Both the position numbers and the translations under genes were made by a program. 64,000 nt of DNA from a phage, in the sequence record PX246730.1; one strand, 5' to 3'. Each line of letters opens with the position of its first letter. The stretch's first letter is position 1. This document shows, one piece after another, positions 57,333 to 64,000 of this stretch. The notes under the pieces were generated by a model, which was given only the letters and a program-made list of their open reading frames with translations, did not search any database and was not told the origin of the DNA.

Positions 57333-57343
57333 AACTTGACAAG

Positions 57344-57730
57344 GTGGTGTGGGTCTTGATAGGCTTACATCACCTTTTTATTTGGAGTTACATTATGGAC
57401 TTGTGGCTTTATGTAGCAGTTTGTGGGGTTGTATGTCTGATAATCTTATTTATTCTTGGAGTAATGCGATTTAGAGACATCATACAGTCAGATTTTTTAC
57501 CTGAGTTTGCCATGATAGTTGGGGTTATTACCCTTTGTGTCTTGGCGGTGTTCTATTCATACAAAGCTGTGATATGGATGGAGGCAAACAATTGTGTAAA
57601 AACTCATCAGCATCGTGAGGTTACTTATTATGTGAGTGTACTTAGTGGTAGCACCACTATACTTGTCCCACAAACTTCTGTAGAGTATCTTTACACATGC
57701 GATAATGGTAAAACTATATGGTGGAATTAA
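57344..57730 (+). CDS. hypothetical membrane protein
   Basis: multiple hydrophobic segments. Confidence 0.4.
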   Translation: MVWVLIGLHHLFIWSYIMDLWLYVAVCGVVCLIILFILGVMRFRDIIQSDFLPEFAMIVGVITLCVLAVFYSYKAVIWMEANNCVKTHQHREVTYYVSVLSGSTTILVPQTSVEYLYTCDNGKTIWWN

Positions 57731-57933: not shown

Positions 57934-58325
57934 TTAAGTTAAACCAAAAACAGTTAGAGTGGCTTAAAGATTACGCCTCAGAGTGTGGCTCTTGCGAAAA
58001 GAATCACGTCAGGTACTCAACATTCCATACGACCTTTACATTGTATATCAGCGACAACGTTCTAATCGATTCCGTAGAAGATGGTGTAGCATTGCCTAAT
58101 GAATTACTTGATAAATTAGCTGTAGTCACTGGAACGTGGAGTGAAGAAGATGGTCATGAACTATCTAACGATATTGTCTTCTACAGTCTTGAAAACATTA
58201 TGAATCCAGAGTACATTATGCTAATGACTTGTGCACAAGACTGTGTACCATTACAAAACTTCATTAAAGAGCACTGTGAAGAATTTATTACTAAACAGGT
58301 TCCTTGTCAGGTGGTGTTTGAATGA
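57930..58325 (+). CDS. hypothetical protein (131 aa)
   Basis: ORF track. Confidence 0.4.
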   Translation: MIKLNQKQLEWLKDYASECGSCEKNHVRYSTFHTTFTLYISDNVLIDSVEDGVALPNELLDKLAVVTGTWSEEDGHELSNDIVFYSLENIMNPEYIMLMTCAQDCVPLQNFIKEHCEEFITKQVPCQVVFE

Positions 58326-58621
58326 GTAAAACAATTCGAAGAAAAGGTTTAAAGAACGTTCATGGACTTTATGAGTGGAGAAATGAGGTACGTAACAGAG
58401 AAAATGCTTCAGAGGTCTACTATCACTCTGATATGATGTCCAGAAAAGGTGGCTCTTATGACTTCACAAGTCAGCCTTGTAGAGAGATTAAGAAGGCTAC
58501 TAAACGTCTTACAAGAACACAAATAAGGCAGCTTTCTAAGACATCCTTCTTAGATGAAGATTTTGACATTGATAGTAAGTCTCCAAAGAAAGCTGCTCAG
58601 AGCACTTATATGTATTGGTGA
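58322..58621 (+). CDS. hypothetical protein (99 aa)
   Basis: ORF track. Confidence 0.4.
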   Translation: MSKTIRRKGLKNVHGLYEWRNEVRNRENASEVYYHSDMMSRKGGSYDFTSQPCREIKKATKRLTRTQIRQLSKTSFLDEDFDIDSKSPKKAAQSTYMYW

Positions 58622-58630
58622 GGTAACTAG

Positions 58631-59116
58631 ATGAATTACATGGAGATTAGACAATTTGACACAGCTAATGGTGAAGGGGTTCGTGTAAGCCTCTTCGTAG
58701 CTGGTTGTAAGCATCACTGTGAAGGCTGCTTTAACAGGGAGTCTTGGAAGTTTAATGCTGGTAAAGAGTTTACTTATGCAAATCTCTACGGAATCATCCA
58801 GTTAATGGGTGACAATGCTGTCAGTGGGCTGTCAATACTTGGTGGAGAACCTCTGGATGATAGAAATATTCAAGAGGTTACCAATATATGTAAACGTATT
58901 AAAACTGTTTATCCAGAGAAGACTATATGGCTCTGGACAGGTTTTCAGTTACACGAAAAAATTCACCTAGATGTAATGAAATATGTTGACGTGGTGATTG
59001 ATGGTAAGTATGATTCATCTAAACCAACAGTTAAACCATATCGTGGTTCTGATAACCAAAACCTCTGGAGAAAAGAGTATGGATGGCAAGGCGACTGTCA
59101 ATGGCGAGCCGAATGA
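58631..59116 (+). CDS. nrdG: anaerobic ribonucleotide reductase activating protein (radical SAM)
   Basis: CKHHCEGC cysteine motif, about 160 aa, downstream of nrdD. Confidence 0.75.
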   Translation: MNYMEIRQFDTANGEGVRVSLFVAGCKHHCEGCFNRESWKFNAGKEFTYANLYGIIQLMGDNAVSGLSILGGEPLDDRNIQEVTNICKRIKTVYPEKTIWLWTGFQLHEKIHLDVMKYVDVVIDGKYDSSKPTVKPYRGSDNQNLWRKEYGWQGDCQWRAE

Positions 59117-59354
59117 TTATTCTGGCAAGTGGACTTACGACATCAACAAGTTAGATGCTTGGATGATTTACACAAGAGAAAAATTTGGTGCACATTCATT
59201 ATGTGCTCTTGCAACGATTGTAAAGAATGTCACCTTTATCATTCATGAATCTGATAAGTTTGGAGACCTCTACATAATTCAAAACATCAGAGAAGGTATA
59301 ACTCCAATCGGTATCACTGAAGAAGAGCTTCATAAGTTCTGTATCAAACTTTAA
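59079..59354 (+). CDS. hypothetical protein
   Basis: ORF track 58998-59354 trimmed to ATG at 59079 with GGAG upstream. Confidence 0.35.
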   Translation: MDGKATVNGEPNDYSGKWTYDINKLDAWMIYTREKFGAHSLCALATIVKNVTFIIHESDKFGDLYIIQNIREGITPIGITEEELHKFCIKL

Positions 59355-59357
59355 TGA

Positions 59358-59636
59358 GTGAGACTAAAAATGGGAATTTTAGGTAATATGAAAGCTGGCT
59401 TCTTGAAGGCACTGGCAAAAGCAGCAGCAATCATTTCTATGACTGGAAAGCAGGTTGGTGTGGATGCTTCAGCAATTGCACAGGTTCTTGCAAGCCAAAT
59501 TGAACAGCAGCCTTACATCCACGTTGGACGTGGTAAAGGTGGTAAAAAACAAGCACATCGACCAACTGGTGCAGCAGCTATTAAACGAGCAGCTAAGAAA
59601 GCTCGTAACCGTAAACGCAATAAGAAGGCTAAATAA
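59358..59636 (+). CDS. small basic protein (Lys/Arg-rich C-terminus)
   Basis: ORF track. Confidence 0.4.
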   Translation: MRLKMGILGNMKAGFLKALAKAAAIISMTGKQVGVDASAIAQVLASQIEQQPYIHVGRGKGGKKQAHRPTGAAAIKRAAKKARNRKRNKKAK

Positions 59637-59638
59637 TC

Positions 59639-59959
59639 ATGAGCAAAGTTTATAACACTCGCAAATTACAGATTTTCGTACTGTGCCAGTTTATGGCTAA
59701 AGAATACAACTTCTACTATTGTGGCACAGGTTTTATTAGCGACGATGACGGTTCATACCTACCATTCAAAGAAGCTGTAAAGCTCTTTAATGAAGAGAAA
59801 AGCTCTAAGAAAGATATTGAAAAGGTTAAACTAACCTACAGCAAGAAAGATAAGAAGATTATCTGCCTAGATAACTTTGTAAAAGTTACTGGAGAAGCAA
59901 AAGAGTTTATGGATGAGAGTGAGATTTCATTCACAAGCATCTTGAAAGTAGCTCAGTAA
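59639..59959 (+). CDS. hypothetical protein (106 aa)
   Basis: ORF track. Confidence 0.4.
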   Translation: MSKVYNTRKLQIFVLCQFMAKEYNFYYCGTGFISDDDGSYLPFKEAVKLFNEEKSSKKDIEKVKLTYSKKDKKIICLDNFVKVTGEAKEFMDESEISFTSILKVAQ

Positions 59960-60010
59960 ACAGATACTATAAGGGGACTGTAAAGGTTCCCTTTTTATTT
60001 TGGAGATAAA

Positions 60011-60526
60011 ATGTATCTGTCAAACCTGAAACGTTCTGCTGCAATGTCTGTCCTAAGACTGAGCTTTGAGGAACGTCAAGAGTTCATTGACTCCCACCAA
60101 TATGACCCTTCTAACTCTAATCACATGATTCTCTGGAATCGTGACAGCACTCGTGAAAGAGCACTATTCCGCTATTACCCACATTACACCATAGATAATC
60201 TGTATGAATGTTTTGTTGTGAAGAACACTATTGCAGTGCTCAATAAGCTTTGTAGATACACAGGTAACCAGTCCTTCACATTAGGTCACCACAAGCCTGT
60301 TACAAAAGGTGGTGAACATCACTGTGCAAACTGGTTTATTCAGACTAAACTTGATAACCAGAAGCAAGGAGATAGTCTTCTAAGCACACCGAAGATGACC
60401 TATGAAGAGCAAGAGAAATATATCAAAAATAATATGCCAGATGTGCTTGACAACAACTATACAGATTTGGCAATATCTCTCCTGTTGAAGTTCGAGGCAG
60501 TTTATAGGGCAACTTACAATGGCTAA
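60011..60526 (+). CDS. HNH-like nuclease domain protein (putative)
   Basis: CRYTGNQSFTLGHHKPVTKGGEHHCANWFIQTKLDNQKQGD resembles HNH pattern (C..G...HH.P...GG....N......N). Confidence 0.4.
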   Translation: MYLSNLKRSAAMSVLRLSFEERQEFIDSHQYDPSNSNHMILWNRDSTRERALFRYYPHYTIDNLYECFVVKNTIAVLNKLCRYTGNQSFTLGHHKPVTKGGEHHCANWFIQTKLDNQKQGDSLLSTPKMTYEEQEKYIKNNMPDVLDNNYTDLAISLLLKFEAVYRATYNG

Positions 60527-60641
60527 AACCTGTACCAGACAGCACAGGTAACTGTAGTGTACTTTATCACGTTGTAGACCCTACAAAATGCAAATCTGCA
60601 ATGGCAGTGACAAACGTAACTTTTGATTGAGAGAGAAAACT

Positions 60642-61523
60642 ATGAAAACATCTATCCGTGTTACAGTTCATTCACCAACTAAAGGGACTCATGAAGAAGA
60701 GTTTAACATCGTACAATTTCCTTCTGGTGAGATTGGTGGGCACTTTTCGCCAGAGTTTGTCGATTTTACTACTTATGCAGCATCATCCATCAACAATGTG
60801 ATTATGATTGTAAAAGGTTATGATAAGGACACATTGTTTGCTGTGGCGCTTGCTAAAGAAGCAATTGATGATTTAGTTCCTCATGATTATGCTCTGAAGA
60901 CTGTCATTTTTTACTACTTGCCGAATGCACGATATGACCGTCACATGTTTAAAGGCGACGCAGCAGCTTTAAAGGTTTTTGCTAAACAAATTAATGCAAT
61001 GGGGTTTGGCGCAGTCTGTGCAGTTGACCCTCATAGTTACGTTCCAGATAACCTGTTTAACTGCTTCCAGAGTATCCCTCAAAAGGAAATTGCAGTCCAC
61101 TATGCAAATGACCCACTGGTTGATTACTTAGTCGCCCCAGATGCAGGTGCTTCTAAGAAGATTGCAGAGACTGCTAAAGAGGTGGATAAACCATATATCA
61201 CAATGTCTAAAGTACGCAACCTTAAGACTGGTGAAATTACTGGTATGCGAATCCTTGATGATGTTGATTTGACAGATAAAACTGTTATGATTCTTGATGA
61301 TATCTGTGATGGTGGTCGAACCTTCATAGAAGCAGCTAAACATCTTCGTGAAGCAGGTGCAAAACGTGTGGAACTCTATGTAACACATGGCATCTTCTCT
61401 AAAGGTGTTGAAAATTTACTTGACAATGGTATTGACCATATCTACACTACAAACTCTTTAGGCGAAGCTAAAGACCGTGGCTTAACACATTATAGCCAAG
61501 TTACTGTAGCAAACCTTGATTGA
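60642..61523 (+). CDS. ribose-phosphate pyrophosphokinase (Prs) family protein
   Basis: Prs-like motifs VDPHSYVPDN, LVAPDAGASKK, MILDDICDGGRT; ATG at 60642 after GAGAGAGAAAA. Confidence 0.75.
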   Translation: MKTSIRVTVHSPTKGTHEEEFNIVQFPSGEIGGHFSPEFVDFTTYAASSINNVIMIVKGYDKDTLFAVALAKEAIDDLVPHDYALKTVIFYYLPNARYDRHMFKGDAAALKVFAKQINAMGFGAVCAVDPHSYVPDNLFNCFQSIPQKEIAVHYANDPLVDYLVAPDAGASKKIAETAKEVDKPYITMSKVRNLKTGEITGMRILDDVDLTDKTVMILDDICDGGRTFIEAAKHLREAGAKRVELYVTHGIFSKGVENLLDNGIDHIYTTNSLGEAKDRGLTHYSQVTVANLD

Positions 61524-61531
61524 AAGTTTAT

Positions 61532-61554
61532 AGGGGCTTAAAAGCCCCATTTTG
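61532..61554 (+). terminator. intrinsic terminator-like hairpin
   Basis: GGGGCTT-aaa-AGCCCC followed by ATTTTG. Confidence 0.45.
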
Positions 61555-61568
61555 AGAGAGATTAAAAG

Positions 61569-63350
61569 ATGACTAAATCACTTTATGCAGTACCAGTAGG
61601 TTTAAACGCAGATGCTTACAAATCTGGTCATGTTTACCAGTATCCTAGTGCAACAGAGTACTTGATGTTCAACCTGACACCACGCAGTGATAAATGGTTT
61701 AACAGTCCTTTAGCAATTGACGGTGTAGTGGCTTTTGGTATTCAACGTTTCGTTAAAGATTACTTGATAGACCACTGGAACGCCACTTTCTTTGAACGTG
61801 ATAAAAAAGAAGCAATTGATGAAATCTTAGAAGTCATGAATGGTGTTCTGGGTAAAGATGCTATCGGTCGAGAGCACTGGGAAGCACTTCACGACTTAGG
61901 TTATCTGCCAGTCGAAGTATACGCTGTAGAAGAAGGCACAGTTGTTCCGATGCGTGTCCCAATGATTGTCTTCCAGAACACTGTTTCAGGTTTCCATTGG
62001 GTAGCGGGGTATCTGGAAGATGCTTTCTCTGCTGAGATTTGGAAGGCTTGTACCATTGCAACTATTGCATTGCATTATAAACGCATCTGTAAGAAGTGGG
62101 CTGACCTTACTTGCGACAACGACTTACATTTACCTTATCAGTGCCATGACTTTGCTATGCGTGGTATGTCCGGCTTTACTGATGACGCATTTAACGCTGT
62201 AGGCCACTTAACCAGCTTTAAAGGAACTGATAGCTTCCCTGCTGTATACACGGCTAAACGCATCTATGGGCAGTCTTACCCAATCTCTGATATTGGTAGT
62301 TCTGTACCAGCCACTGAACACTCTGTAATGTGTGCAAACATTGCTTGGGAAGGTGGTAATGAGTTGATTGAAGAAGAAAGACGCTTTAAAGGTGAGTTAC
62401 AAACCTTCCGTCGATTCTTAACAGAAACTTACCCAACTGGTATTGCAAGTGTTGTTTCAGATACTTATAACTTCTGGAGAACTGTATCAGAAATCTTACC
62501 ATCGCTTCGTAAAGAGATTATGGAACGTGATGGCAAACTGGTCATTCGTCCTGACTCTGGAGACCCTGTACATATTGTCACAGGTTATAAAGCAATCCAC
62601 TTAGAATGTGCTAAGAAGGCTTATTACGAGCACCTAAGCAAGCTTGAAGCCAGCGACACAATGTTGAACGCTGTTCTGAACATGAAGCTTGAAAACATCA
62701 ATTATGGTATTGCTGGATGGCTACTGTCAGAAGGCTACGAAATGGTTGTTGACAGAGAAGACTTTGAAGTTGCTGATACAGTGTTGTTGAAAAACGCTTA
62801 TATGGTTGGTTCTGCAAATGTTGTAACACGTCCTGTAGCAGAGATTGATGGGGCTATTAAGACCCTGTATAACATCTTTGGAGGGACTATCAACTCTAAA
62901 GGCTTTAAGGTACTGGATGAGCACATTGGCCTTATCTATGGTGACTCTATCACGTTGGAACGTGCAAACGAAATCCTGAAGCGTTTGTATGAAATGGGTT
63001 TTGCAAGCTCTAACGTAGTGTTTGGTGTAGGTTCTTACACTTACCAGTACATGACTCGTGACACCTTTGCATTTGCTGTCAAAGCAACTCTTGCAAGCAT
63101 TGGTGGTAAAGAGATTATGCTTGCAAAAGACCCTAAAACAGATAGCGGTGTTAAGAAGTCTGCTTTTGGTGGTGTAGCGCCCATGTGGGATGGGGATAAG
63201 CTGAAAGCTGTAGATGGCTATGGATTCCAGAGCTTTGCAGATGTGCTTGAACATCCAGCTTGTGCTTTACGTTTAGTCTTTAGTGACTCTGAGCAGTTCG
63301 GTTACACAACTCTTGGTGATATTCGAAATAATATTGACAAGCAGCTTTAA
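61569..63350 (+). CDS. nicotinamide phosphoribosyltransferase (Nampt/NadV) family protein
   Basis: 593 aa; N-terminal YxxxxY..GH region and overall resemblance to Nampt-family enzymes; immediately downstream of Prs-like gene. Confidence 0.7.
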   Translation: MTKSLYAVPVGLNADAYKSGHVYQYPSATEYLMFNLTPRSDKWFNSPLAIDGVVAFGIQRFVKDYLIDHWNATFFERDKKEAIDEILEVMNGVLGKDAIGREHWEALHDLGYLPVEVYAVEEGTVVPMRVPMIVFQNTVSGFHWVAGYLEDAFSAEIWKACTIATIALHYKRICKKWADLTCDNDLHLPYQCHDFAMRGMSGFTDDAFNAVGHLTSFKGTDSFPAVYTAKRIYGQSYPISDIGSSVPATEHSVMCANIAWEGGNELIEEERRFKGELQTFRRFLTETYPTGIASVVSDTYNFWRTVSEILPSLRKEIMERDGKLVIRPDSGDPVHIVTGYKAIHLECAKKAYYEHLSKLEASDTMLNAVLNMKLENINYGIAGWLLSEGYEMVVDREDFEVADTVLLKNAYMVGSANVVTRPVAEIDGAIKTLYNIFGGTINSKGFKVLDEHIGLIYGDSITLERANEILKRLYEMGFASSNVVFGVGSYTYQYMTRDTFAFAVKATLASIGGKEIMLAKDPKTDSGVKKSAFGGVAPMWDGDKLKAVDGYGFQSFADVLEHPACALRLVFSDSEQFGYTTLGDIRNNIDKQL

Positions 63351-63364
63351 AAGTATATGATAAG

Positions 63365-63390
63365 AGGCTCCTACGGGAGCCTTTTTAATT
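63365..63390 (+). terminator. intrinsic terminator
   Basis: GGCTCC-tacg-GGAGCC followed by TTTTTAATTT. Confidence 0.65.
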
Positions 63391-63403
63391 TCTGGAGAAG
63401 ATT

Positions 63404-63739
63404 ATGAAAATCAAAGAAATGAACATCAACATTGTCTTAGAAGAACGCTGGGAGAACATTAAGAAGCCTGAAAATGGTCATAAGTTCCTTAACAAAATTT
63501 TAGTAGCAGCTAAAGAAGAACTGACTGGTAAGATTGCAGCAGCAATCACAATAAAGGTCTGTGTAAAAGGTCTTCCAGACAATCACCAATTTGCACTTGA
63601 CGAGTTTAAAGAAAGCTTCTACAATCCAAACAAACAGATGCTTGAAAGTAACTTTGCAGTATCTACAAGTATCGTTCATGACAGAAGCTTTATCCTTTAC
63701 AAGAATATGAGAGGTGAGTCATGCAAGCATATTGGATAG
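63404..63739 (+). CDS. hypothetical protein (111 aa)
   Basis: ORF track. Confidence 0.45.
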   Translation: MKIKEMNINIVLEERWENIKKPENGHKFLNKILVAAKEELTGKIAAAITIKVCVKGLPDNHQFALDEFKESFYNPNKQMLESNFAVSTSIVHDRSFILYKNMRGESCKHIG

Positions 63740-63897
63740 AAATTTTACTGTCACTTGGTAGTGTAGCAGTATTTGTTTACCTTCTTTGCAAGTACTATGC
63801 AGAACACAAAAAATGTGACTTCTGTAATGGAGAAGGTTATACAAGAGCAGGTTGTTGCCCTGTGTGTGGCGGTTCTGGTAAAATGTTTAATAAGTAA
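63721..63897 (+). CDS. small membrane/zinc-ribbon protein (58 aa), not in ORF track
   Basis: hydrophobic N-terminus then CDFCNGEG...CCPVCGGSG. Confidence 0.3.
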   Translation: MQAYWIEILLSLGSVAVFVYLLCKYYAEHKKCDFCNGEGYTRAGCCPVCGGSGKMFNK

Positions 63898-63926
63898 TTC
63901 AACAGTAAATTAAGAGGAAAGTATTA

Positions 63927-64000
63927 TGCGCATGGTAAACGACCACGCAGAAGTGATTAAGAGTTCAACTTCTTTGGAGACATCTCAAGCACAGATTACA
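63927..64000 (+). CDS. partial CDS (5' end only; continues beyond window)
   Basis: ATG at 63927 preceded by AGGAAAG; open to window end. Confidence 0.3.

Follow-up and report, generated by a model that had tools for sequence, protein, structure and literature searches.

A probable core NARP1 operon in a wV8-like Felixounavirus, syntenic with genes 79 and 80 of phage Bas63

RESULTS AND DISCUSSION

Layout of the locus

The window analysed here is a stretch of 64,000 nt of phage DNA. It is that of a wV8-like Felixounavirus, and across the locus its nucleotide sequence is 95.8% identical to wV8. A Prs-like gene (adps) lies directly 5′ of a Nampt-like gene (namat) on the same strand, with a spacer of 45 nt between them (Table 1). 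This arrangement had been described in a sequence-only reading of the DNA, and an ORF check found both frames exactly where that reading had placed them. A TTG at position 60627 is an alternative start for adps and would add 5 aa to the protein.

The same reading had the pair bracketed by terminators. On the downstream side this holds, as a strong terminator-like hairpin follows namat, but nothing terminator-like is present immediately 5′ of adps. The nearest upstream terminator on the plus strand precedes the 171-aa ORF, so that the two terminators bracket a block of three genes. The upstream hairpin has the architecture AAGG...CCTT (TTTATTTGGAG), which is shared with the sites at 57341-57376 and 63362-63385. 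Transcription of the block to which the NARP1 operon belongs likely starts here. The scan found no promoter-like site in 60527-60641. A further hairpin, ACCTGT...ACAGGT at about 60530-60551, was considered as the upstream terminator and rejected, as it has no T-run, was not called by the scan and lies inside the remnant of a deleted gene.

The 171-aa ORF is not part of NARP1, yet it lies inside the same terminator-bounded block. It gave no significant match in a Pfam search, and its Bas63 orthologue gp77 has been reported to counter the Ec67 retron (10.1101/2024.10.10.617714). Alignment with Bas63, wV8, D4 and BPS15Q2 revealed a deletion of 167 bp at 60525/60526 that destroys the small gene preceding adps. 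In Bas63 this gene, bas63_0078, is intact and located between gp77 and adps. Among the top matches, every record with itemised flanking features spans about 165 bp more than the query does.

The spacer between adps and namat contains a weak hairpin. The 55-nt stretch around it has a minimum free energy of -12.6 kcal/mol (z = -2.45), and the hairpin is not among the terminator-like sites listed by the scan. It may act as an attenuator or stabilise the RNA. In some relatives, a gene for an HNH homing endonuclease is inserted at the spacer boundary, 61524/61525.

Table 1. Features of the adps-namat locus (positions in the 64,000-nt window)
Feature	Position (nt)	Strand	Remarks
Promoter-like site	59942-59970	+	5′ of hairpin 59971-59993
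Upstream terminator-like hairpin with T-run	59971-59993	+	Before the 171-aa ORF; terminator/promoter scan
171-aa ORF	60011-60526	+	Bas63 gp77 orthologue, 96% identity
Small-gene remnant	60527-60641	+	115 nt; relatives wV8 gp135 / bas63_0078, 279 nt; alignment
adps, ADP-ribose pyrophosphokinase (predicted, Prs-like)	60642-61523	+	293 aa; ATG at 60642
Adps diverged wV8-type allele stretch	~60654-61193	+
Adps catalytic Lys190	61209-61211	+
Adps ribose-phosphate loop DDICDGGRT	61296-61322	+	aa 219-227
Weak hairpin GGGGCU-UAAA-AGCCCC, then AUUUUG	61533-61548	+	In adps-namat spacer
namat, nicotinamide ADP-ribose transferase (predicted, Nampt-like)	61569-63350	+	593 aa; ATG at 61569; stop ends at 63350
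Namat clamp loop (SCL)	61677-61724	+	With K42-W43
Namat catalytic His251	62319-62321	+
Namat 77-aa inserted subdomain	62619-62849	+	aa 351-427
Namat clamp-helix motif (SCH) GSYTYQYMTRD	63030-63062	+	aa 488-498
Promoter-like site for the next gene	63334-63361	+	3′ side overlapped by hairpin 63362-63385
Downstream intrinsic-terminator-like hairpin, strong	63362-63385	+	10 pairs, then T-run; scan

The gene pair is orthologous to Bas63 genes 79 and 80

The pair is the positional (syntenic) orthologue of genes 79 and 80 of Bas63 (Escherichia phage JohannRWettstein), where bas63_0079 encodes Adps and bas63_0080 encodes Namat. NAD+ reconstitution pathway 1 (NARP1; Adps + Namat) was defined in this phage, which is itself a Felixounavirus (bioRxiv 10.1101/2024.02.11.579819). 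Bas63 and the window share the gene order, the protein lengths of 293 and 593 aa, an identical 45-nt spacer and the neighbouring genes, with gp77 upstream and the rIIA/B region downstream. The two Namat proteins are 98% identical, including both insertions as well as SCL and SCH. The Adps proteins are 78% identical overall. Their C-terminal 113 aa are 96% identical, whereas the N-terminal region of Bas63 Adps is another allele, with 60% identity over aa 1-95 and 74% over aa 96-180. A search of a public gene-position index with the exact sequence of the window Namat returned no record; its closest relatives are metagenomic proteins with 99% identity and the wV8-like phages.

Linkage of the two genes is also found beyond this genus. 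A Prs-like ORF was present within 3 kb and on the same strand at 77 of the 79 viral loci carrying a Namat homologue. In the founding paper, 97% of the Adps clade was found to be encoded beside a Namat gene. Among bacteria, Klebsiella michiganensis has a Prs-like/Namat-like pair that is linked to NrtR, and Shewanella oneidensis has the classical prs-nadV pair.

Namat carries the adenine-clamp signature

The Namat protein matches the Pfam families NAPRTase and NAMPT_N and scores 468 bits against NF006629 (cut-off 405) and 673 bits against phrog_448. For both Namat and Adps, the E-values of the family matches are far beyond chance. The Nampt-like core is present: Y17, F195, R198, D221, H251, R327 and D329 correspond to Y15, F189, R192, D215, H245, R306 and D308 of the enzyme from Bacillus phage SPbetaL1 (SpβL1). 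All nicotinamide, NMN and AMP contacts of the SpβL1 enzyme (residue list in PMC12774641) are conserved or conservatively replaced, and this set also includes D15, G458-D459, G488-S489-Y490, Y494 and T496-R497-D498. Superfamily, fold and core catalytic residues are likewise shared with NadV of H. ducreyi (HdNadV, 9KE8), Nampt of Xanthomonas (Xcc Nampt, 7YQO) and human NAMPT.

In addition to this common core, the window Namat carries the published adenine-clamp signature in its clamp helix (PMC12774641). Both this protein and SpβL1 Namat fit the SCH motif GS[FY]TYQY[NM]TRD. In the canonical enzymes, the corresponding segment reads GAQTYQRNTRD (HdNadV) or GGALLQKVDRD (Xcc Nampt), and the aromatic clamp residues are absent. 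A closely similar segment was found at all 79 viral Namat-like loci, a few of which lack the aromatic residue at the seventh position. The motif serves as a quick sequence test for Namat. For the clamp loop between β1 and β2, two modes of stacking have been described, either with an Arg at the third position or with a Lys or Tyr followed by the stacking residue, and Bas63 is an example of the latter (PMC12774641). The loop of the window protein (TPR-SDKW) is identical to that of Bas63 Namat, with K42 in third and W43 in fourth position, whereas SpβL1 uses Arg40.

Comparison with solved structures points in the same direction. By sequence, SpβL1 Namat (9W5W/9W5X) is the nearest match with 430 bits, compared to 351 bits for HdNadV, 181 bits for Xcc Nampt and 142 bits for human NAMPT. 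A Foldseek search with the AF2 model (pLDDT 92.7) also gave 9W5X as the best match (E 2e-52, target TM-score 0.95), with E-values of 2e-45 for HdNadV and 1e-37 for mammalian NAMPT.

Adps groups with Namat-linked proteins

Adps matches the Pfam families Pribosyltran and Pribosyl_synth. It scores 328 bits against phrog_619 and 122 bits against the ribose-phosphate diphosphokinase model TIGR01251 (cut-off 113), but stays below every canonical Prs equivalog cut-off (92 versus 297 bits for NF002320, 105 versus 296 for NF002095 and 56 versus 536 for NF003428). As a clade profile, an HMM was built on 50 viral Prs-like proteins, all of them distant and linked to a Namat, with E. coli Prs as the cellular comparator. 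The window Adps scored 235 bits against this profile and Bas63 gp79 scored 241 bits, compared to 129 bits for E. coli Prs.

The identity between Adps and E. coli Prs is 25-29%, and the two have superfamily, fold and core catalytic residues in common. Residues R97, D99, R100, H131, D219, D220 and T227 are invariant between them, and K190 aligns with the essential K162 of SpβL1 and with K194 of E. coli. The ATP-site and catalytic residues of the Prs superfamily are retained, including this equivalent of B. subtilis K197. The differences lie in the loops. The flexible loop, SKVRNLKTGEI, matches the clade pattern K.R[DN]..TG.I, whereas E. coli Prs has DKRRPRANVSQ. In the ribose-phosphate loop, where E. 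coli Prs has DDMIDTGGT, four of five residues match the clade consensus.

No structure of an Adps was found in the PDB, where the best match is an archaeal Prs (4TWB, 71 bits), and the Adps assignment therefore rests on clade HMM, motifs, linkage and orthology. By these comparisons, the window Adps appears to be a member of the clade associated with Namat and not of cellular Prs; its distinction from Prs depends on this placement and on the linked gene. The sequence-only reading held that canonical Prs and Nampt cannot be told from Adps and Namat by sequence alone. This view is outdated, since a Namat-specific motif (PMC12774641) and membership in the Adps clade can now be looked for, and both were found here. 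The profile and structural comparisons which that reading had proposed place Adps with the Namat-linked clade and Namat nearest to 9W5X.

Proposed reconstitution of NAD+ from ADP-ribose

With a probability of about 0.92, the gene pair is a core two-gene NARP1 that rebuilds NAD+ from ADP-ribose and nicotinamide. The sequence-only reading had named NARP1 as a candidate, and the synteny with Bas63 genes 79 and 80, the clamp motif and the clade HMM bear this out. In the window itself we observe the two genes, their orthology, the conserved catalytic and clamp residues, the clade membership and the fold. The identification as NARP1 is correct but already known, because the window comes from the phage genus in which NARP1 was found and the system was described in 2024.

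In the proposed mechanism, a NAD+-depleting defence system of the SIR2, TIR or SEFIR type would split NAD+ into ADP-ribose and nicotinamide. Adps would then pyrophosphorylate the 1″ position of ADP-ribose at the expense of ATP, yielding ADPR-PP. Nicotinamide would displace the pyrophosphate of ADPR-PP on Namat, so that NAD+ is formed directly. In the window Namat, the clamp would consist of W43 in the loop together with Y490 and Y494 in the helix. Since the adenine-binding clamp narrows the entrance of the pocket, Namat would prefer ADPR-PP over PRPP. This preference, together with direct formation of NAD+, has been shown for the homologues of SpβL1, P. foliorum and DyoEdafos. Enzymology and crystal structures were obtained by others with the SpβL1 homologues and would extend to the window proteins by analogy. 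SpβL1 shares with the window the two-gene order, the catalytic and clamp residues and the fold of its NARP1 (9W5W, 9W5X; PMC12774641), at identities of 46% for Namat and 28% for Adps. Experimentally validated Adps proteins include those of SpβL1, FADO, Bas63, Gary, DyoEdafos and P. foliorum. That the window proteins have the same activities is an inference, above all for Adps with its diverged N-terminal allele.

The anti-defence phenotype and the detection of ADPR-PP in vivo come from the work of others on the Bas63 orthologues, and by analogy the window pair may be expected to behave alike. Deletion of g79-80 renders Bas63 sensitive to SIR2-HerA (10.1101/2024.02.11.579819). In an independent study, deletion of g79 or g80 singly reduced the plating efficiency on Sir2-HerA cells by a factor of 10^4-10^6.

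In GenBank, the two products are named ribose-phosphate pyrophosphokinase and nicotinamide phosphoribosyltransferase in all relatives. On that annotation, Prs would make PRPP from ribose-5-phosphate, Nampt would make NMN from PRPP and nicotinamide, and the host would finish NAD+. Both proteins do pass the family-level models of Prs and Nampt, and in vitro SpβL1 Namat still converts PRPP to NMN, about half as fast as human Nampt does (PMC12774641). As Namat homologues keep this PRPP-dependent synthesis in vitro, some classical salvage activity is possible. As the reading of the gene pair, however, classical salvage is very improbable. Bas63 still overcomes SIR2-HerA in ΔpncCΔnadR cells, where NMN cannot be used, and ADPR-PP (m/z 720.010) was seen only when the Bas63 operon and the defence system were both present (10.1101/2024.02.11.579819). 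The adenine-clamp signature that is absent from canonical NadV and Nampt, the failure of the Prs-like protein at all canonical equivalog cut-offs, and its grouping with the Namat-linked clade argue against it as well. Furthermore, a search for the (H/T)xGH nucleotidyltransferase motif of an NMN adenylyltransferase found none in the six frames of the window, although this crude regular expression is a weak test.

Other known systems were compared with the core NARP1 assigned here. Two extended forms contain the same Adps/Namat core: NARP1-AP of Vibrio phage Gary, with the Macro-domain ADPR-1″-phosphatase Adpp, and the RyDEP-extended NARP1 of phage DyoEdafos, with a third gene. The window has the core only. 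Its 45-nt spacer is too short for an ORF, and none of the eight neighbouring ORFs, among them those within two genes on either side, has a Macro or RyR Pfam match at E <= 0.01, their Pfam matches being DUF-level and NrdG activase only. An extended NARP1 with a Macro phosphatase or a RyR cADPR glycosidase was therefore rejected. NARP2 of Vibrio phage KVP40 (canonical Nampt NadV + Nmnat NatV) also restores NAD+ in a phage with a Nampt-family enzyme, but it starts from PRPP and requires an NMN adenylyltransferase; it was rejected on the Prs-like partner, the Namat clamp and, within the 64,000-nt window and by the crude motif search, the missing Nmnat motif.

NARP1 explains the resistance of about 4% of sequenced phages to SIR2-HerA, Thoeris type I, DSR1/2 and SEFIR. 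Its recognition corrects the annotation as Prs plus NadV salvage on essentially every Felixounavirus record. The phage is predicted to plate on hosts with NAD+-depleting systems and to fail against aRES-type systems that produce ADPR-1″-phosphate, in line with the published result that a core NARP1 is not expected to overcome this type of NAD+ depletion. The assignment is useful for the choice of phages in therapy and typing, and adds no new biology.

The Adps allele and the Namat insertions

What is new at the locus is small and comprises only the N-terminal allele of Adps, the 77-aa subdomain of Namat and the 167-bp deletion upstream of adps. The N-terminal third of Adps is a diverged wV8-type allele with about 60% identity to Bas63, and its function is putative. 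At the nucleotide level, identity to the Bas63/FelixO1-type allele is 57-62% over 60654-60923 and exceeds 93% on both flanks. This drop between highly similar flanks is the pattern of a recombination mosaic. Within the first 95 aa, the Bas63 type and other Ounavirinae genera are about equally far from the window allele (58-65% identity), whereas identity between the Bas63 type and these genera is 65-75%.

Such divergence might suggest that the pair is NARP1 by descent, with altered properties of the wV8-type Adps, for instance a different substrate range (such as phosphorylated ADPR derivatives), a different regulation or oligomerisation, or evasion of a host factor that recognises Adps. The mosaic and the about equal distance of the window allele from the Bas63 type and from the other genera would fit this explanation. 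We nevertheless regard it as highly unlikely. The motifs RYDRH, DPHS, K190-x-R and DDICDGGRT are identical in both alleles, and the Namat partners of both are almost identical. In addition, the wV8 type is the commoner allele, being found in 17 of 20 Felixounavirus-like viral contigs sampled, which argues for an ordinary functional variant of NARP1.

It is also doubtful that the two deeply diverged, recombining alleles of the Adps N-terminal domain kept by Felixounaviruses and/or the 77-aa subdomain of Namat are functional adaptations and not neutral variation. If they were, they could for example change the substrate range or the regulation, or protect the NARP1 enzymes from being sensed or inhibited by a host factor.

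Two insertions in Namat, one of about 15 aa (258-272) and one of 77 aa, are absent from the crystallised SpβL1 enzyme, which has a 10-aa linker in place of the longer one. In the AF2 model the longer one is predicted with confidence to form a folded subdomain. An origin from an intein or a mobile element was rejected, as the insertion is in frame, is conserved across Ounavirinae and folds within the enzyme. Its site also speaks against such an origin, being a length-variable position common to many viral Namats that spans 10 to 92 aa.

Orthology of the gene pair to the Bas63 operon

The sequence-only reading had placed a Prs-like gene beside a Nampt-like gene, and the ORF listing of window 58000-64000 contains both ORFs at exactly those positions, separated by 45 nt. 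An alternative TTG start of adps at 60627, upstream of the ATG, would lengthen Adps by five residues. The same purine-rich stretch, TTGAGAGAGA, lies upstream of both start codons. Adps matched Pribosyltran and Pribosyl_synth in Pfam, TIGR01251 (ribose-phosphate diphosphokinase) in NCBIfam (122 bits, cut-off 113) and PHROG 619 (328 bits). Namat matched NAPRTase and NAMPT_N, NF006629 (468 bits, cut-off 405) and PHROG 448 (673 bits). Positions and family matches agree, and the pairing is therefore real.

Coordinates of the features discussed (window positions unless another record is named)
Feature	Position	Strand	Basis or remark
171-aa upstream neighbour ORF	60011-60526	+	96% identical to Bas63 gp77
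Remnant of small gene	60527-60641	+	alignment with Bas63, wV8, D4, BPS15Q2
adps	60642-61523	+	293 aa counted from ATG
Weak hairpin, then AUUUUG	61533-61548		adps-namat spacer; z = -2.45
namat	61569-63350	+	593 aa
Namat insertion, aa 258-272	62340-62384	+	alignment with SpβL1 Namat
Namat insertion, aa 351-427	62619-62849	+	alignment with SpβL1 Namat
Terminator-like hairpin with T-run	63362-63385	+	3' of namat
Nearest terminator-like site upstream of adps	59971-59993	+	ahead of the 171-aa ORF
Same-style hairpin elements	57341-57376, 59942-59993, 63334-63385	+	two with promoter-like site directly upstream
bas63_0079, 882 nt	MZ501086		annotated ribose-phosphate pyrophosphokinase
bas63_0080, 1782 nt	MZ501086		annotated nicotinamide phosphoribosyltransferase
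HNH homing-endonuclease insertion	L011 2391-2882; L012 2116-2607		comparison loci of relatives
Prs-like/Namat-like locus, Klebsiella michiganensis	GCA_023685665.1 contig (L092) 3211-6491		
Enterobacterial Namat-like proteins			P0073, P0085, P0112, P0068

Megablast of window 60400-63500 against phage genomes returned 259 records, nearly all from Felixounavirus and related Ounavirinae infecting Escherichia, Salmonella, Shigella and Citrobacter, with wV8 as the top match (95.8% identity). Every annotated relative carries the labels ribose-phosphate pyrophosphokinase and nicotinamide (or nicotinate) phosphoribosyltransferase. In the Felixounavirus Bas63, the gene lengths, the spacer length and the neighbours of the corresponding pair are all the same as in the window. 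Bas63 gp80 is 98% identical to the window Namat (584/593) and gp79 is 78% identical to the window Adps (228/293), both without gaps.

The Bas63 operon has been studied experimentally. Without it, the phage is sensitive to SIR2-HerA and NAD+ is reduced in infected cells; Bas63 still prevails on a ΔpncCΔnadR host, which is unable to use NMN, and the new metabolite ADPR-PP (m/z 720.010) appeared only with operon and defence system together (bioRxiv 10.1101/2024.02.11.579819). In an independent knockout screen, single deletion of g79 or g80 lowered plating efficiency by 10^4-10^6 on Sir2-HerA cells, and complementation restored plating (10.1101/2024.10.10.617714). The founding paper performed the enzymology on the SpβL1 homologues and counted NARP1 in 859 phage genomes (bioRxiv 10.1101/2024.02.11.579819). 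In these orthologues and homologues, Adps converts ADPR and ATP into ADPR-PP, and Namat forms NAD+ and PPi from ADPR-PP and nicotinamide. Phages are thereby shielded from SIR2-HerA, type I Thoeris, DSR1/2 and SEFIR.

Discrimination from canonical Prs and Nampt

The Namat 'selectivity clamp' was defined in two parts by the 2026 structural paper, one being the β1-β2 loop, which provides one further stacking residue (PMC12774641). The clamp-helix segment of the window Namat reads GSYTYQYMTRD (aa 488-498), whereas canonical H. ducreyi NadV has GAQTYQRNTRD and Xanthomonas Nampt has GGALLQKVDRD at the aligned position. Its clamp loop, TPRSDKW, follows the 'Lys then stacking residue' mode for which Bas63 is the example in PMC12774641. 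The residues contacting nicotinamide and ribose phosphate and the catalytic His are all conserved or conservatively replaced. By sequence, the solved structures closest to it were 9W5W/9W5X (430 bits), compared with 181 bits for Xanthomonas Nampt and 142 bits for human NAMPT. These entries are assigned to SpβL1 by the data statement of PMC12774641, and the 9W5W-derived sequence matched OQ921341 at 100% in tblastn. An AlphaFold2 model of the window Namat built on 35 homologues was confident (mean pLDDT 92.7, pTM 0.90). The Foldseek top match was 9W5X (E 2e-52, target TM-score 0.95), with HdNadV and mammalian NAMPT ranking below it.

No Adps structure was found in the PDB and no residue-level Adps signature in the literature searched; Adps was therefore judged by the founding paper's criteria, clade membership and linkage. 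A same-strand Prs-like ORF was present inside the 3-kb flanks in 77 of 79 viral contigs encoding Namat homologues. On an Adps-clade HMM made from 48 linked Prs-like proteins less than 60% identical to the window Adps, plus the SpβL1 and FADO Adps, the window Adps scored 235 bits and Bas63 gp79 241, against 129 for E. coli Prs. It also falls far under all canonical Prs equivalog and subfamily cut-offs in NCBIfam (e.g. 92 vs 297). K190, its catalytic Lys, lines up with SpβL1 K162, mutation of which abolishes the pathway (bioRxiv 10.1101/2024.02.11.579819). Both its flexible loop (SKVRNLKTGEI) and its ribose-phosphate loop (DDICDGGRT) fit the consensus patterns of the clade for the most part (K.R[DN]..TG.I and DDiCdgG.T); the counterparts in E. 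coli Prs read DKRRPRANVSQ and DDMIDTGGT. The sequence-only reading had held that sequence alone cannot tell Prs/Nampt from Adps/Namat, but the clamp motif and the Adps-clade tests separate them. Classical salvage by Prs and NadV, which fits the annotations and the TIGR01251 match, is highly improbable in view of these tests.

For the window pair, gene identity, orthology, conservation of catalytic and clamp residues, fold and linkage were established in this analysis. Orthology to Bas63 g79/g80, the clamp motif, the clade HMM and linkage support the proposed reading as NARP1, with enzymes acting like their characterised orthologues and homologues (probability about 0.92). Adps of this phage would turn ADPR and ATP into ADPR-PP, and Namat would turn ADPR-PP and nicotinamide into NAD+ and PPi. 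The pair is a re-identification, within the genus of its discovery, of a system published in 2024 and will not surprise a specialist; the residual interest lies in the wV8-type allele of Adps and in the subdomain inserted into Namat.

Two Adps alleles and the NARP variant

Compared with Bas63 and the FelixO1-like BPS15Q2, nucleotide identity drops to 57-62% over window 60654-60923 and is 73-86% over 60924-61193, with more than 93% on both flanks; wV8 and D4 remain 91-98% identical to the window throughout. Between the wV8-type (window) and Bas63-type Adps, amino acid identity is 60% for aa 1-95, 74% for aa 96-180 and 96% for aa 181-293. Over aa 1-95, Adps of other Ounavirinae genera is roughly as far from the wV8 type (62-65% identity) as the Bas63 type is; with the Bas63 type it shares 65-75% identity. 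Of 20 Felixounavirus-like contigs sampled, 17 have the wV8 type, which is thus the more frequent allele there. Judged from these alignments, the 5' half of adps is mosaic, and Felixounaviruses carry two recombining Adps N-terminal alleles. The experimentally deleted Bas63 operon carries the FelixO1-type allele and the window the wV8 type, which is the main caveat in transferring function to the window Adps. Since the catalytic motifs are identical between the two types, we consider an allele-specific functional departure of the wV8-type Adps very unlikely despite this divergence.

The NARP variant is the core two-gene form. The spacer of just 45 nt excludes a third gene between adps and namat, and neither a Macro domain (NARP1-AP phosphatase) nor a RyR domain (RyDEP glycosidase) was found in the eight surrounding ORFs. 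A crude six-frame motif search of the window found no NMN adenylyltransferase. By published result, core NARP1 is unable to use ADPR-1''-phosphate, and NAD+ depletion of the aRES type should therefore still be effective against this phage.

The crystallised SpβL1 Namat lacks two insertions of the window Namat, of ~15 and 77 aa. The main text of PMC12774641 does not contain the word 'insertion'. The AlphaFold2 model is confident for the larger block (pLDDT 93-96) and shows helices and strands within residues 342-427. In 79 viral loci and 35 database homologues, this site is anywhere between 10 and 92 aa long, whereas the clamp motif hardly changes; by this alignment it is a general length-variable Namat site and no peculiarity of this phage.

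Local layout and neighbouring genes

The pair had been described as bracketed by terminators. This holds downstream, where a T-run hairpin follows namat, but nothing terminator-like directly precedes adps. As the nearest upstream site lies ahead of the 171-aa ORF, the block between the terminators consists of this ORF followed by a gene remnant, adps and namat. The terminator scan did not list the spacer hairpin. Three plus-strand terminator-like hairpins share one style, AAGG…CCTT, TTTATTT and then the GGAG Shine-Dalgarno of the next gene, and two have a promoter-like TTGAMA-N16/17-TAnnAT directly 5'. They are reminiscent of the promoter-plus-stem-loop units found on either side of gene cassettes in T4-like phages.

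Relative to Bas63, wV8, D4 and BPS15Q2, the window has a 167-bp deletion at 60525/60526, which may be natural or an assembly artefact. It destroys a small gene (wV8 gp135 / bas63_0078) between the gp77 homologue and adps that is present in 4/4 aligned relatives; in every top match with flanks itemised in the feature list, the record spans ~165 bp more than the query. The window spacer is free of the HNH homing-endonuclease gene that many relatives have there, among them D4, BPS15Q2, pinkbiff and VpaE1 (a 468-bp insertion in D4, BPS15Q2 and others, at the point 61524/61525). In HNH-carrying genomes namat is diverged over roughly its first 180 nt (68-80%), a pattern resembling a co-conversion or immunity tract.

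Bas63 gp77 was reported as an Ec67 retron counter and described as GIY-YIG (10.1101/2024.10.10.617714). The homologue gave no significant match in a Pfam scan, and by eye its sequence (…GHHKPVTKGGEHHCANW…N…) resembles an HNH/His-Me finger motif more than GIY-YIG. rIIA/rIIB, downstream in Bas63, are reported qatABCD counters. With these and the gp77 homologue, NARP1 is located in an anti-defence gene cluster.

A related chromosomal pair beside NrtR

Chromosomal proteins of Klebsiella, Cronobacter, Kosakonia and Erwinia are the nearest relatives of the window Namat that lack the insertions; they share ~46-48% identity with it and carry the clamp motif GS[FY]TYQYNTRD. In K. michiganensis, the Namat-like gene follows a Prs-like gene scoring 225 bits on the Adps-clade HMM (E. 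coli Prs 129), and a gene for an NrtR-type regulator (NUDIX + WHD_NrtR) is oriented divergently to the pair. ADP-ribose releases NrtR from prs-nadV operators, and the dedicated second prs paralogue was termed unexplained in 2008 (PMC2330246). Given the clamp motif, the Adps-clade score and the ADP-ribose-released NrtR, the operon classically described as 'prs-nadV' under NrtR control may be a NARP1 of bacteria that its own substrate induces. No mention of NrtR together with NARP1, Namat or Adps was found in the literature searched. A Namat-signature pair beside an ADPR-responsive NrtR in enterobacteria may interest the field of bacterial NAD metabolism.
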